The notes beneath the pieces are model-generated. The model had not been told where the DNA came from and searched no databases. It worked only from the letters and a program-made list of their open reading frames with translations. Made by a program: the position numbers and the translations under genes. Below, piece by piece: positions 29,369 through 61,728 of a DNA stretch of 64,000 nucleotides; position 1 is the first letter of the stretch, and every line of letters begins with the position of its first letter. The DNA lies in assembly GCA_951406725.2 (NCBI GenBank), contig OX597826.1, forward strand, positions 11,160,001 to 11,224,000, written 5' to 3'. The DNA comes from Octopus vulgaris (taxonomy: Eukaryota).

Positions 29369-30507
29369 CTAGTTTCAGCTCACGAGCTGTGGCCATGCTG
29401 GAGCACCACCATTTGGTGTTGCTACATTATTTTATTTCACGAATGCTTTTTAGCAATTGACATTTGGTGCATGAGAGAGTTTGATGCTGCTGCCCTCAAC
29501 TGCACCTCCTGCCGCGAAGTTGGTTCATCTGGGACACCTGACAGGAAGAGGTCCAGCCTTATTTTGAAGACACCTACATCAACCCCATACAGGTCTCTCA
29601 GGTCCTTCGAGAAGATATTGAAGAGCTTTGGTCCTCTGAAGCCCAGGCTATTGCAGTATCTTGTCCTACATCTTAATGGCAAATTTGGAGTCCTTGGCAC
29701 TATGCAGAGGCGCCCACTTCTAGTATTTGTGTAACTCTCGATGCTAAAGTTTGGGACAAGTCCTTCCAGGGTCTTCCAGATGTATATTATGGCATATTTT
29801 TCTCGCCTACATTCAAAGGAATAGAGTTTTAATCTCTTGAGTCTTTCCCAATAGCTTATATACTGCATAGAGGCTATCTTCTTCGTGTAGCTTCGTTGGG
29901 TTGCCTCAAGTTCTGTGATTAATTTGACACTGGTTGGTGACCATAGCTGAGAGCAATAGTGAAAGTGGCTTAGGACAAGTGTCCTCCAGAGGACCATCAT
30001 GGTTTCCTGGTCTCTTGTTCTTAAAGTTCTAAGAATCCATCCGGTCAGCCGCCTACATTTCATTGCCAATTTAGCAACATGCATATGAAAGGATGCATCA
30101 TTATTCATGTAAATGCCCAGGTCTCGCACTGATTGTGCCTCTGGGATTGCAATCCCTCCAGGTCCAGTGTATTTATTGGGTATTGCATTTAGTTTTGCAT
30201 GCTGATAGCACAAAGCTTGACACTTTTCAACATTGAACTGCATGCTATTCTTTTCAACCCACTTGTATATTTCATTTAGCTCACATTGCAGGTGCATAGT
30301 GTCTTCAGGGTTCTGTATTACCTGTGAAACTTTTGCATCATGTGCATAACTTGTGATCGTGGCTCTCTGTGTGGCTGAGGGCATGTCTGAGAGGGCCATT
30401 ATGAACAGCAGTGGTCCCAAACAGTGCCTTTCGGGACACCGCTCACTATTTGCGTGTCATTGGCGGTGGCCCCATTGGCTACTACCACCTGACTTCTATC
30501 CTTCAGA
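29369..30507 (-). mobile_element. 5'-truncated CR1/Jockey-group LINE (RT plus C-terminus, ORF 29437-30420; catalytic YADD mutated to YAHD)
   Basis: SGVPKG.. / GPLLFI, YAHDAK, RDLGI, YCSQLWSP, YWERLKRLKLYS; 3' UTR at 29369-29436. Confidence 0.92.
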
Positions 30508-30610: not shown

Positions 30611-30783
30611 TTAAACACAATATATACTTTATAATATATAACAATATTTACATGCGATGGAAACATCTCACTATGTTTTTAACATGTCTGGTGTTTTAAC
30701 ACGCAATCCTCTGGCTATGCGCACATGGCATGTTTTCATCGCATGAAACTATTAGAAGTTCATAAAAATATACATTGTGTTTA
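30611..30783. repeat. Imperfect inverted repeat / hairpin element
   Basis: Pairs taaacacaat/attgtgttta and catgcgatggaaacat/atgttttcatcgcatg. Confidence 0.75.
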
Positions 30784-30942
30784 ATACATAATATCTATCT
30801 CTCACTAGATTTTTTGTTGATCATGCCATCACGGAGCATCATATATAATCCGAATTAGGGACTTTGCAGCCTTCGAAACATATGTAGAAAATAATATAAA
30901 GGAATTTTGTTAAATCTTCGTTCAGCTCCATTTCTTCCTACA

Positions 30943-31001
<59 letters not shown>

Positions 31002-31050
31002 GTAGGAAGAAATGGAGCTGAACGAAGATTTAACAAAATTCCTTTATATT

Positions 31051-31136
31051 ATTTTCTACATATGTTTCGAAGGCTGCAAAGTCCCTAATTCGGATTGAAT
31101 AAGGAGTCCATTTTGCAGCTTTCTCTTCAGGAAAAT
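31051..31136 (-). ncRNA. Type I hammerhead ribozyme
   Basis: Minus strand attttc CTGAAGA gaaagctgcaaa...tttgcagccttc GAAA CATATG TA gaaaat. Confidence 0.88.
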
Positions 31137-31863
31137 CCAGGAACTTAATTCTCCAACAAAATGCACAAGAAGCTTAACTCAGAACTTTTTCATATTTTGT
31201 TCGCCCGAGGGCAGCTTGTTAACTCGATTGTGCAAAATTCTTTCAGATGCCCCCACTGGAAACGGCATACCTTTCTCTCATACCAATGAAGTCTAATATA
31301 GATAACCCCTGGATTTCCTAAAAAAATTGGAAAAAAATCTGAATAAAATTTGAAAGGGGATATCCCTTCCCTGTTAGTATAAGAACTGCTAGTTGTCAAG
31401 AACTGCTGCCATCCCTGACAGCAACACTGTATCCTGCCATGGCCATTGTGGACACCCCCCTCTCTCTATCAAGTAGTCACATACGAACACACAGACACAG
31501 TTTTTTCAGTTTCTTGACCATTAATACCTGCTATATCTCTCTCTCTTTCTGCCATCGAAACACACTGTCACACATACATAGACGCACACACACATACATT
31601 AAAGAAATTTCTCACACTCAAACACTCTAACACTCATTCTTAAAATAATTCAAATATAAACACCAGTCATACAGAATACATTCACACTCTTCTGCCAACC
31701 GGATTCTGACCTTGAACTATCTCAACGGACAATCTCTTCTGCTTTCACCCAGTCTGGCGTCAACGCATATAGATAGACAGTTTGTGTCATTTATTTCATG
31801 GGCTCCTCGTGAGCGATTGTCGAAAAGCTTCTTGTGCATTTTGTTGGAGAATTAAGTTCCTGG

Positions 31864-31949
31864 ATTTTCCTGAAGAGAAAGCTGCAAAATGGACTCCTTA
31901 TTCAATCTGAATTAGGGACTTTGCAGCCTTCGAAACATATGTAGAAAAT
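31864..31949 (+). ncRNA. Type I hammerhead ribozyme
   Basis: attttc, CTGAAGA (31870-76), long stem II, GAAA (31932-35), CATATG, TA, gaaaat; predicted cleavage after 31943. Confidence 0.88.
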
Positions 31950-32140
31950 AATATAAAGGAATTTTGTTAAATCTTCGTTCAGCTCCATTTCTTCCTACAC
32001 TTAATATATAAAACTTCAAATTTCCGCACTCGTAACTTCAACCGTGCTTTTTCTGTTGTGATTTTTACTACCCAGGTATCGGTTATCATTTGAATTATCC
32101 GTAATAAGATAATTCATTTATCTACTTCAATATGTATATA

Positions 32141-32176
<36 letters not shown>

Positions 32177-32207
32177 TGTATGTATGTATGTATGTATGTA
32201 TATATAT

Positions 32208-42834: not shown

Positions 42835-43815
42835 ATTGTCTTTGCAGAGCTTCTATCGCTGGAGATGTACTACGGTGTCAGCTGTTCACTACCAGTGAAC
42901 TAAGGTAACACCCCTTATTTTTCGAACACCATCCAGAGTATTCGAGCGGTTCCAAGCAATGTTATTTTCTGCAAGTGCTCCACCCTTATTGCAGCCCCAA
43001 TTTGTTCTATGTACTTCTCAAGATTTTTACTCAGCGTTCCCAGGGCTCCGACAATTACTGGTACCACTACCACAACTGCTTAAGCTTCAAAGCTAACCTG
43101 TCGGCATTTTTTTCTTTCTTATCACATACCTTGTTGTAAGCTTGGCATGCTATATCTATAATCCAGCATCGTTTGCTTTCTTTCTCAATTAACACTATGT
43201 TTGGTTTCCTATTCTCCATCTCATGGTCGCACTGAATCATAAAATCCCGTAGGATTTTTGCATTATCATTTTCGATGATGCCTTCGGGTTTACGTTCGTA
43301 CCACTTTTTTGTTCTATCAAGTCTATACTTGTTGCAAAGTGTGCAATGGACAATCCTTGCTATATTGTCATGACGTGTCTTATATTCTTTCTGGACTAGT
43401 GGCGTACATTGATCGGTCATATACCATACGGTTCCTCCAGTTTGTCCACAAATTCTGCACTTATTCCTTTCCGATGTGTTCTCTATTCTGCATTTTATGA
43501 AATTGGTTATTAATGCTTGTTTTTGGGCAGCACAGATTAGAGCCTACGTTTCCGGTTTTAAATCACTTTTAGTCATCCACAGCCATCTTTTTTCTCTGTC
43601 TGTCTTATCTTCAACATCCCTATGAAATTGACCATTCATTCTTTTCTTTACCCACCTATTTTCAGTTACATTCATTCTCAAATGTTTGTACAGTGCTTTA
43701 TCTTTGCAATCTTTCATCCTACACAAGCCTTACCTTCTTACTTCTAGTAGTAGCAGTTCTGTGACATTTTTTACATACCATATTCCGTCCGTTTAATTTC
43801 GACTTAAGTATCAGT
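42835..43815 (-). mobile_element. R4/Dong-like LINE 3' part (restriction-like endonuclease)
   Basis: MNGQF..W.WM.KSDLKPET, YKTRHDNIARIVH, NRKPNIVLIEK..CWIIDIAC; ends in (TAA)n. Confidence 0.88.
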
Positions 43816-46495: not shown

Positions 46496-46826
46496 AGTAT
46501 TTTGTTTCTTTGTGTGAAGGGCGTATTCAATACTGACATATATAAATGATTTTTATATTTAGCTACATGACCGTAACTTTATCGATAAAAGGAATCAGGT
46601 TACATGATGTCATACTATGAAAATCATAAGAAGTGTTTCTAAGTCGAAAAATGCTTGAGTTAGTAACGAATTCGACTCACGGAAGTTTAGCTTTCGTTCT
46701 AATAATCAGGATTTCTAGGATAATATATATATATATATATGTAGGTCCCGGGTTGAGTCGGGGTTAACCACAGTAAATAAGGTACTCAATACATAGCAGA
46801 GTAAATTAATTTATTTTATAGAAGGA

Positions 46827-46875
46827 GCTTCTACAGGACTAGAACTGTTTCATTCAAATGAAATCATCAGGAAGC
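46827..46875 (-). ncRNA. Type I hammerhead (minus arm of palindrome)
   Basis: Identical to the plus-arm motif at 46874-46922. Confidence 0.75.
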
Positions 46876-46922
46876 TTCCTGATGATTTCATTTGAATGAA
46901 ACAGTTCTAGTCCTGTAGAAGC
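46874..46922 (+). ncRNA. Type I hammerhead (plus arm of palindrome)
   Basis: gcttc CTGATGA tttcatttgaat GAA ACAG ttctagtc CTGT A gaagc; U-U at the base of stem II. Confidence 0.75.
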
Positions 46923-46928
46923 TCCTTC

Positions 46929-46960
<32 letters not shown>

Positions 46961-47483: not shown

Positions 47484-49268
47484 TTAAAGCACTTCATCGT
47501 TAACATCTCCAAGATTTTTAGGAAAACAATCAAGAGGACTAAAAAGATAATGCCTTTTGATGCTCATATTCGCGCCATTATCACGAAAAGTTGATATCAA
47601 GTTGGTAACAAGGTCTTTATGGTTTTCACTGTTGTGTTTCCCTAGGAAATTTTGCACTACGTCTGCAAAGGCTAGCCAAGCTGATGCTTCATTTTCGCTC
47701 ATCGTTTTCATGAAATTTGTGTCCTTCAAGAGCTTATGGATCTGTGGTCCATCGAAAATCCCTGCTTTAAGCTTTTCAATCGTCAAGTCTGGAAATATAC
47801 TGAAGATAAACTTGAAGCACTCTCTATTTTTGTCAAGAGCTTTGACGAATTGCTTTATCAATTCGAGTTTGATGTGTAAAAGGCGGGAAAATGATCTTAT
47901 CTCGCTCAACTAAAGGTTCTTCCAATACATTGGCCGCTCTACATTGATCCATATTTATTCGAGGCGGCCGGTCTTTCTTAACATAGTAGTTTCCTTGGTC
48001 TCTACTGTCCCACATGCAAAGAAAGCATGGATATTTGGTTTAACTAGAAGGCTGTTCCATGAGAAAATTCACCATGGAAAAGTCAACGCAGATGACCCAT
48101 TTATGATCATGATATAGTATCTTCTCTAAAACCAACTTAATTTCTCTATATTTTTCCTTCAGAGTTGTTGAGTAGCCGAGTGGGACAGAGCCATACACAT
48201 TTCCGTTATGTACACATTTTAAACTACGCTTAGAGCTGTCTATAAAAAGACACCATTCCTCTGGTTTGTACTCCTCAATGCCAAGTTTATTAAGAAGCCT
48301 ACTGACATCTCTACAGTAAAACAGCTCTTCCTCTTTTGTGAAGATAGGAACTCTTCATGCCGGTTTCGATAAAAGGTTATACGGACACCCTTTTCTAGAA
48401 GAGTCTTCTCTTTCAGTCGAGAAGGTAACAGTTCTGCAGAATTTTTGGGGGAAGATCAAGTCACGAATTAGATCATTCAGCTCTGAGAGAATAGATGAGG
48501 TAAAATCGAAACTGAAAAGTCTTGATCTCTAGTGTCTTCTTCAGGTGATGAATCTTCTTTGGTTGGGGATAAAGTTAGTTATCTGAGGCAAAACATTGAA
48601 GACAGGAACAGGAAACTCTTCACTGTGTGGAACCAGTGTAATAGCAGAGGCAAGATTAGGATACACGAGCGTTTGTCGATTTTTCGGTTAATACTCTTCA
48701 AATGTAGGTTACAAGAATAGCAGTCGTCCACGTGATTATGGGGCTCCTGCCATAACATTGGTATAGCAAACCTCATACTGTTCCTTGTCCCTTTAGTCCA
48801 TTGTCGTAAATGTTCTGTACATTGTTTGCAGACGCTATGCGGTGCCCAATATTTATCTTGGTCTCCCAGCTTCACCCCAAAATATGCTTTTTCGATTTTC
48901 AGCTAATGTGTATTCGCCACAAACAACAAACCACATTTGGAGAATTAACGCAACACTTTCTCATTTTCTATTGCTTTGTTCACCACAACATCTAAAACGT
49001 ATGGAAAAAGAAAAGATAAAATTTAGAATTAGAATAGGGTGACGAACACTGCGTACTGGACGTACACGCATACATAGTGACTGTAGGGATGTTCAATGAC
49101 TTAAAAACTATATCTGATGGGTTAAAAAGGTTATATCTGGATTCAGGAGACCGATTTTGTAAAGTATGATGTCTATTTCCTAAACACCAAAAACCTTGTA
49201 GACCAAGTTTTATAACTTTTAACCCTTTCTCCAATAAAAGACACCCTCTAATGACGGTTAAACAGTGA
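47484..49268 (-). mobile_element. Decayed DNA transposon, probably CMC/Chapaev-3-type transposase
   Basis: KLGDQDKYWAPHSVCKQC, FAIPMLWQEPHNHVDDCYSC, LHIKLELIKQFVKAL, KLKAGIFDGPQI, GANMSIK.HYL..FPKNLG; possible CACTG terminus at 49268. Family assignment is from recall. Confidence 0.7.
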
Positions 49269-59207: not shown

Positions 59208-59629
59208 GAATGTATGAATATATAAACATATACACGCACAAAGGCATAATACTCATACACATAAAAATACGCACATATGTATACACAGTCCGAGAAGAAT
59301 CGTTCTAATAGAACGCTTAAATGAAAGCTGAATTTCAATAAAATTCTTTAACATTAAAAATCAATAACATTTCGTCAGACGAACGAAGGTCAAGTGCTAA
59401 ATTCTTAATGTCATGTAATCTTTAATACGTTTCTGTAATCAAATTCTTCATTTTCCGTATATGTGAGTGAATGAAAGATATTTTTCACCCTGTTGTCTTA
59501 TAGTTCATATATAGCATGAAACTGAAGAGTCAAGTACTGTAGTGGAAATATAATAATAACAACAACAACGACAACAATAGTAACAACAACAATACTAATA
59601 ATAATCATAATAATAATAACAATAAAGAG

Positions 59630-59985
59630 GAATTCTTATGGGTGCAAAGATCAATTACACATAAGTAAAATGATTGTAGAGAATTGCCGGAGCAAAAAGA
59701 CCCTGAGTATGTCGTGGATAAACTGCAGGAAAGCCTTTGGTAGTGTCCCACATAATTGGATACTCAAGGCCTTTGAGATATATAAGATCTCTGCTATCAT
59801 CTCCAAATTCTTACAAGGTAGCATGACCAAGTGGGACACACGTCTCGATCTAAACCATAGTAATGGGATTCAAACGAGGCATCTTTCAAGGTGACTCCCT
59901 CTCCCCATTACTCTTTTGCATGGCACTGATCCCACTCTCAAACGAACTAAATAACACCAGGTATGGGTTCAAAGTTTACAATACG
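59630..59985 (+). mobile_element. R4/Dong-like RT fragment
   Basis: KDQLHISKMI, WINCRKAFGSVPHNWI and RGIFQGDSLSPLLFCMALIPLS; preceded by (AAT)n. Confidence 0.85.
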
Positions 59986-60622: not shown

Positions 60623-61728
60623 TACTCTTTTACTTGTTTCAGTCATTTGACTGTGACCATGCTGGAGCACTGCCTTTTTAGTCGAGCAAATTGACCCCAG
60701 TCATCATCATTGTTCGACCGTGGTCGAGACAATGGAATTTACTATGTTACGCCAGACTTCACGGCCCATCATAGCATTACGGAGGTCCTGTTGCTGGATG
60801 CCTGTATCCCTGGAGATTACATCAGGGTAGGAGAGTGTGCGCCCTCTAGTATTGCGAGTAGATGGCTTCTAGAGGAGAAGAGTAGAAATTACTTCTTTTT
60901 CAGCTCTACAACAATGTCCAGCAAACTGGACTCTCCTACCTTTCACAAGAGATGACACAGGTGGTAGTTTCCCATATATTTGCATTTTGGTTGGATGGCG
61001 CTTCCACGAGAGATTTTGAGCTCTCATAAGGAGGCGAGTGTAGGTTCCAACCAACCGCCTCTCAAGCTTCTTTGATAACCTCCAGGTTTCTGAGCCATAT
61101 AGTAGAATTGGTTCGACTGTGGCTTTGAATATTTCAAGTTTGAAGTCTCTATTTAGATTTGATGACCAGATCTTATGCATGTCATTACAGGCTGACCAGG
61201 CCATACCCTTTCTAGTTAGAAAGTCTTTTCCAGATGATGATATGTATGACCCAAGATATTTATAATCAGAAACCATATTTAAAGGCGCACTGTTGAGAGT
61301 ATGGATGATGCAATCACTGTTGGACAGGCACTTGTTTATGTATTCAGTTTTGGCCTCATTGAGGTAAAGACCTACACAATTTGAGGCTTGTTCAAGAGAT
61401 TGTAAAAGAGACTGGGCATTGGAGAGAGAATCACTGATAAGAGCGATGTCGTCAGCAAAGTCAGTGTCTGTCAAGTACTCAGCTGGGTGTCTGGAACTTC
61501 TTCTTGGTTTTATTTCAAAGCCCTTGCCAGAGATGGTATCAACTGACATACGTAGCACATAATAAACAACAATGATGAAGAGAAATGGGGCGAGTGTGTC
61601 TCCCCCCAGTACTTATTCTTTGTAAGCCTAGTACATATTCTATCAGTCTCTTTTGCCGAACTGCTAAGTCCAAGGGACGTAAAAACACCACCATCGGTTG
61701 TCTAGCGATGTTGGGGGGACAAACACAT

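Follow-up and report, generated by a model that had tools for sequence, protein, structure and literature searches.

What kind of mobile element leaves two nearly identical arms, each with an outward-pointing hammerhead motif, around a non-coding interior, together with a third, partial arm that faces one of them across a TA tract? Such a locus lies in an AT-rich, microsatellite-dense region of the Octopus vulgaris genome, of which we analysed a stretch of 64 kb (the window). A preliminary description had interpreted it as a young, non-autonomous Penelope-like element (PLE) that mimics a TIR transposon. We consider it probable that a member of a high-copy Penelope-like retroelement family with hammerheads inserted here recently in 5'-truncated form, leaving the interior, arm C, and a tail on the plus strand; arm B is likely an inverted second copy that arose in the course of this integration, and arm A probably a third, short one that was primed within the (TA)n tract as well (Table 1).

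Table 1. Features of the locus, in coordinates of the window
Feature	Coordinates	Strand	Description
Arm A	30846-30944	+	99-nt 5'-truncated terminal-repeat piece, preceded by (AT)3
(TA)26 tract	30946-30997		Likely target site; centre of the 250-bp A/B palindrome
Arm B	30998-31175	-	Inverted, 5'-truncated terminal-repeat copy; 177/178 identical to arm C
Type I hammerhead motif in arm B	31051-31136	-	Core 31130-31124; predicted cut between 31057 and 31056
Interior	31176-31824	+	649 nt, multicopy, without detected coding similarity, continuous with arm C
Arm C	31825-32002	+	Sense terminal repeat, pLTR-like
Type I hammerhead motif in arm C	31864-31949	+	Core 31870-31876, stem II 31877-31931, helix III palindrome 31935-31942, predicted cut 31943/31944
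One-sided extension (tail)	32003-32101	+	Begins where arms A and B stop; right end approximate (32101 up to ~32130)
TA/TATG microsatellite	32131-32205		Likely right-hand part of the target region

The only difference between arms B and C is a C/T transition within a CpG at 31908. The outline of near-identical inverted arms of about 178 bp, with an outward type I hammerhead motif in each and some 650 nt between them, was thus correct, and the youth attributed to the element was borne out as well. One difference in 178 positions translates into an age of ~0.8 million years, with an upper bound of 4.3 million years, at the rate of 0.0036 substitutions per site per million years given in the accessible text of PMC13282606, here taken per lineage and with gene conversion assumed to be absent. 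What the preliminary description had missed is that about 100 nt of repeat continue to the right of arm C. As for the interior, it likely represents either the element's 3' UTR or its non-coding body.

Arm A matches the outer part of arm B at 98 of 98 positions and arm C at 97 of 98 (over 30847-30944). Its start lies inside stem II; of stems II and I it keeps the 3' strands, together with GAAA, helix III, and the cleavage site, and it lacks CUGAAGA. This agrees with the initial account of a third arm that holds the GAAA-side half of the motif and forms an inverted repeat of ~98 bp around (TA)~25. In the resulting 250-bp palindrome of A and B, the sole mismatch is the pair 30945/30998, adjoining the TA tract. 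Just left of arm A lies an old inverted repeat (30611-30784; 77% over 56 nt), possibly a decayed MITE, with no second copy in the window.

In arms B and C alike, the motif combines a stem I of 6 bp with the core boxes CUGAAGA and GAAA; between these boxes lies an interrupted stem II spanning 55 nt, the first pair of which is G-C. The palindrome ACAUAUGU as helix III and a GUA triplet make up the remainder. A hammerhead descriptor found both of them and one unrelated site in the 64-kb window (31870 plus, 31130 minus, and 655 minus, respectively), and had no match in 100 shuffled 64-kb windows. The unrelated site (~570-661, minus strand, core 655) is likewise a type I hammerhead motif, in which stem II is long and helix III is the palindrome ACAAUUGU; it is single in the window, and a TATG microsatellite follows ~150 nt downstream. 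A four-copy repeat at 1504 minus, 2519 minus, 20739 plus, and 28470 plus contains words that resemble the hammerhead core in permuted order (GAAAC followed by CUGAUGA or CUGAAGA), with no stem I discernible by eye. Rfam reported no hammerhead family for 31000-32115 at E<=10, where it gave five chance matches; the long stem II is probably the reason. Across the whole window, none of the 150 matches listed (of 225) exceeded the gathering score, and most were microRNA models placed on microsatellites and hairpins.

Folding predictions suggest how these motifs might act. For one monomer, the MFE structure (-18.6 kcal/mol) contains stem II only, without stems I and III, and the hammerhead fold lies 1.5 kcal/mol above it. 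When two monomers cofold freely, they adopt the dimeric hammerhead (-46.4 kcal/mol), in which helix III is intermolecular and 8 bp long. The motif is thereby predicted to work as a dimer, via its 8-nt palindrome, in tandem copies. Since the motifs of B and C lie on opposite strands, neither has a partner in cis, and no tandem of the arm was present within the 64-kb window. To call both motifs complete hammerheads is therefore appropriate with regard to the type I motif, present in B and in C, and has to be qualified in that they are of the dimer type and have no Rfam hammerhead match.

In folded transcripts spanning both arms, of either polarity and with or without arm A, the core was paired with a probability of 1.0, and stems I and II had a probability of 0. 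Upon removal of the opposite arm, stem II formed (0.87-1.0) and stem I did not (P<=0.001). The self-inhibiting fold suggested earlier is hence predicted for a transcript across both arms; a lone ribozyme, for its part, would not be expected to fold as a monomer in any case, and this predicted dimer requirement would render an antisense block by the opposite arm redundant. Any such transcript would pair into a duplex of 178 bp, and this appears more likely to feed small-RNA or editing pathways than to regulate cleavage.

Regarding coding content, no reverse transcriptase (RT), GIY-YIG, or transposase family was detected by Pfam in the six read-through frames of 31000-32120. Two word-indexed protein searches, each with one plus-strand frame, returned no match, and neither did phmmer with one plus-strand frame against 1.84 billion proteins; these comparisons with large protein databases covered two plus-strand frames of the interior. 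The interior, described as non-coding and proposed for a protein check for GIY-YIG and RT, thus showed no detectable coding sequence in these searches. Two readings are compatible with this: a longer, coding element of which the interior is the 3' end, or a non-autonomous family of which it forms the body. A peptide stretch of arm C reminded us of what we take to be the C-terminal motif of a PLE endonuclease; this candidate was dropped, as neither the word-indexed search nor phmmer gave a match. Because RT and GIY-YIG were sought in this copy and not found, we do not file it as an autonomous PLE; a mobilising partner would have to act on it, and it is the architecture that connects the locus to a PLE enzyme.

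Among 10 open reading frames of the window that were compared with Pfam, RVT_1 was found only in that of a neighbouring LINE. This minus-strand fragment (29437-30456; 339 aa, stop-free) carries a degenerate catalytic motif of the LINE reverse transcriptase; it has 25 relatives at E<=1e-30 and is 57% identical to an Argonauta hians protein. Of the three relatives with a name, two come from Argonauta hians and from a source whose label begins with "Octop", in line with an octopod host. Stop-free frames at 43067-43543, 47484-47909, 59526-59894, and 60869-61612 presumably correspond to fragments of other retroelements or transposases.

Is the structure a singular one, or does it belong to a family? 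Sequence of 31000-32115 is shared in part by at least 20 runs from 10 studies and four organism codes, with none containing more than 0.48 of its words; no RNA data set is named among the runs listed. When contigs of four runs were aligned to this stretch at 85% likeness, every one of the 30 bins was covered in each run, mostly by contigs that are 90-95% alike. Since diverged contigs cover the bins throughout, arms and interior represent a multicopy family. Coverage did not drop after arm C: in all four runs, bins 32026-32101 had 1.2-2.1 times the median depth of the arm C bins, summed depth not being equivalent to copy number. The high-copy sequence of at least 100 nt adjoins C, and not A or B. 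Pattern scans for the arm had no match in metagenome contigs or in viral contigs.

The junctions were examined among 32 listed pieces of 9385. The joint of interior and C was bridged by a diverged contig (run X5, record 24, 31781-31873, 11 differences). None of the listed pieces bridged B and the interior at 31175/31176, and two of them started at 31175 with 11 and 14 unaligned letters. No listed piece bridged C and the extension, so we infer this linkage; over the compared stretch (31000-32115), no piece in the four runs spanned the whole locus. Most likely, the plus strand carries the element in the order interior, C, extension, and B was added locally as an inverted copy. Joints within other copies were also considered: 14 of the 15 joints listed (of 20) were head-to-head inversions of an antisense arm to a sense arm, at 11 different B-side positions, with depths of 13-116, like those of single contigs, and short sides of 21-29 letters at 85% likeness. 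The inverted arms in these 14 joints measured 41-155 nt, compared with 178 nt here. Because the inversion points differ among copies, arm length varies from copy to copy, unlike in fixed TIRs.

Ends of other copies run into TA-rich sequence as well: 11 contigs of run X5 stop at 32010 in TA repeats. A sister variant departs from the arm at 31989/31011, has another last 10 nt, and reaches TA-rich sequence ~10 nt later; other copies contain ~25-28 extra letters near 32030 that are absent here, and loose ends occur at 32030. The base at 31831 is common to B and C, and all depth at this position reads otherwise in four of four runs; arm A shares the bases of B and C at the six family-variable sites checked outside 31908. 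Both observations point to a single template. Arm A probably arose in this insertion as well, as a third, short product primed within the shared (TA)n tract. As all ends sit in microsatellite, no target-site duplication is readable.

MITEs and other non-autonomous TIR DNA transposons have inverted arms around a non-coding interior and sit at TA-rich sites, all of which applies to our locus. B, interior, and C might accordingly form a fixed element bounded by TIRs, be it MITE-like or derived from a PLE and now mobile as one unit with inverted ends of 178 bp; 32003-32101 would then be a different, adjacent repeat. B and C indeed end at the same base, with TA-rich sequence beyond both, 11 contigs of run X5 end at 32010 in TA repeats, and the joint of C and extension is bridged by no listed piece. 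Nevertheless, we rate a fixed unit as very improbable, given the 11 inversion positions and shorter arms of other copies, the two pieces that begin with unaligned letters at 31175, the single bridge from interior to C with none listed from B to interior, the depth that holds after C, and the lack of transposase similarity in this copy (Pfam, six frames). In contrast to MITEs, moreover, arm length differs by copy, the family passes one arm, and the arms carry a ribozyme motif. Since the family continues beyond C and inverts at 11 positions elsewhere, the arms are not fixed termini, and mimicry of a TIR transposon cannot be upheld as an element property. Rather than a new, TIR-imitating kind of element, the arms most likely represent what a shortened Penelope-like element ordinarily leaves behind. 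That selection has kept the opposite arm as an antisense lock on the ribozyme seems hardly credible. Pairing of the core in every fold of a transcript with both arms would suit such a lock, but stem I stays unformed even without the opposite arm, 11 of the 14 listed inverted arms stop short of CUGAAGA and are too short to cover the core, and the layout is a known by-product of integration.

Arm A allows more than one explanation. It might be a snap-back copy of B, generated when a break in the self-complementary (TA)n self-primed and the product was then joined to the left flank, an origin that we regard as possible, if doubtful. The complete match to B, which extends to the C at the site of the T in arm C, and the centring of the palindrome on the TA tract are consistent with this course, and the accessible text of PMC3846280 expects tail-to-tail repeats from 3' self-priming. 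However, the base next to the tract differs (30945 is C, whereas a foldback predicts T), although one change per 100 bases is not rare at such an age, and the C/T site, being a CpG, could have mutated in arm C alone. A snap-back would affect A only and leave the PLE reading of B and C intact. Perfect palindromes of 250 bp are unstable and difficult to sequence, and the palindrome of A, (TA)n, and B could also be an assembly artefact in which two loci of the same young subfamily were mis-joined via the TA tract. No run or contig compared spans the palindrome, to which we attach no weight as evidence, as the compared stretch of 31000-32115 begins to the right of arm A and the TA tract, and short-read assemblies are troubled by such insertions according to the part of PMC8557442 available. 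Still, the window contains no N, most family contigs are only 90-95% alike, so that there is no default reason to expect another locus identical to this one, and TA repeats flank A on both sides, as they would after insertion into one tract. A mis-join is, in our judgement, quite unlikely.

Taking the preferred reading, a truncated PLE insertion with an inverted second copy, as a basis, we propose the following course of events. An RT/GIY-YIG enzyme of a PLE, encoded elsewhere and acting in trans, would nick both strands of the (TA)n target. One nick would prime cDNA synthesis from ~100 nt into the tail, and this cDNA would copy C and the interior and stop at 31176. Arm B would arise when the other nick primes at a nearer site, 32001, which is 58 nt past the predicted ribozyme cut, or when the first cDNA folds back. 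The two products would then be joined head-to-head at 31175/31176. By either route, 32001 could be favoured as an end because of the native TA-rich stretch that directly follows it. For arm A, flanked by (AT)3 to the left and (TA)26 to the right, the simplest origin would be a third product of 99 nt within this tract.

The layout follows a pattern published for PLEs, as far as the accessible portions of the literature show. PMC8557442 describes an inverted 5'-truncated copy at the PLE 5' end that gives rise to flanking inverted repeats, a tail of 30-40 bp, often at one end, and (TA)n targets. In Adineta vaga, inverted pLTRs of 181 and 212 bp with junction palindromes were reported, head-to-head being the common form and tail-to-tail the outcome of 3' self-priming (PMC3846280). 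A PLE enzyme was found to cut and extend both strands, and two internal RT start sites define the tail (PMC11167929). Pairs of hammerheads on opposite strands, 100-700 bp apart, in Schistosoma mansoni were ascribed to truncated PLEs, and little or no activity was seen for monomers (PMC4209133). Penelope is among the families expanded in coleoids (PMC8967140), and 31 recently active Penelope-like families are reported for Octopus vulgaris in PMC13282606, the accessible text of which does not contain the word "hammerhead". No hammerhead was described for cephalopods by title or abstract start in the literature searched, which comprised mostly papers free of subscription and did not extend to Repbase and Dfam. 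The repeat libraries behind PMC13282606 and the supplements of PMC8557442 may already contain this octopus family.

As far as described in the available text of PMC8557442 and PMC3846280, the closest known counterparts are units of endonuclease-containing PLEs (Penelope/Poseidon, Neptune, Nematis, and Hydra). They share with our locus a terminal repeat with a hammerhead, an inverted, 5'-truncated copy located at the 5' end, an apparently one-sided extension, AT-rich or (TA)n targets, and a short pivot palindrome (AAGCTT here). In contrast, the copy studied here has no RT or GIY-YIG and no upstream direct pLTR, possesses an extra tail-to-tail arm across the TA tract, and has a putative tail of at least 100 nt rather than 30-40 nt. 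With the type I hammerheads of metazoan PLEs (Cervera and De la Peña 2014, PMC4209133, in the parts available), our motifs have in common the topology, the G10.1-C11.1 pair, and a short palindromic helix III that predicts a dimer; they differ in a stem II over 55 nt versus 7-8 bp in S. mansoni, in having no bulged base between positions 9 and 10.1, in cores that are 740 bp apart, and in the missing Rfam match. Non-LTR retrozymes, as characterized in the accessible sections of PMC7229834 and bioRxiv 10.64898/2026.07.22.740005, are likewise non-coding, contain type I hammerheads, and were proposed to originate from PLE terminal repeats; unlike the locus studied here, with its inverted motifs and no tandem in the window, they form short head-to-tail tandems with a hammerhead in each unit. 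Taken together, architecture, hammerhead type, and TA targets support the Penelope-like assignment made in the preliminary description.

The head-to-head layout occurs a second time in the window. A perfect 120-bp palindrome beside (TA)16 (46815-46934), unrelated in sequence to arms B and C, carries in each half an outward type I hammerhead-like motif with CUGAUGA, a short stem II, GAAA, a 4-bp stem III, GUA, and a 5-bp stem I, and the MFE structure of a half is a three-way junction of hammerhead topology. This suggests that the layout is routine in this genome.

A further observation concerns the points at which inverted arms begin in other copies. In three of the 14 listed, the first base of the arm is precisely the one that follows the predicted cut, a coincidence with P = 0.0016 if the ends are taken as uniform over the 40 positions that hold 10 of them, and with P = 9e-5 over the full range. 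The sample of 14 arms is small and was filtered by the tool, two other arm ends coincide at a position that is not the cleavage site, and the cut site adjoins the palindrome. It is conceivable, if unlikely, that the locus represents an undescribed cephalopod PLE family in which a dimer-type hammerhead with a long stem II cuts the element RNA in the germ line, and that three cDNAs from one template entered one TA tract.

Our analysis presents the locus as a tidy example of a published insertion pattern, from a family whose ribozyme variant is missed by Rfam. Its 250-bp TA-centred palindrome is a candidate fragile site, and the 178-bp inverted arms are a candidate source of double-stranded RNA; siRNAs were reported to arise from Penelope inverted repeats in the accessible text of PMC3681739. 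The function of PLE hammerheads is termed unclear in the available part of PMC8557442, and in that of PMC11167929, cleavage was dispensable in vitro and no RNA-seq reads ended at the site. If the coincidence of arm ends with the predicted cut held true genome-wide, insertion junctions would record ribozyme cleavage in vivo.
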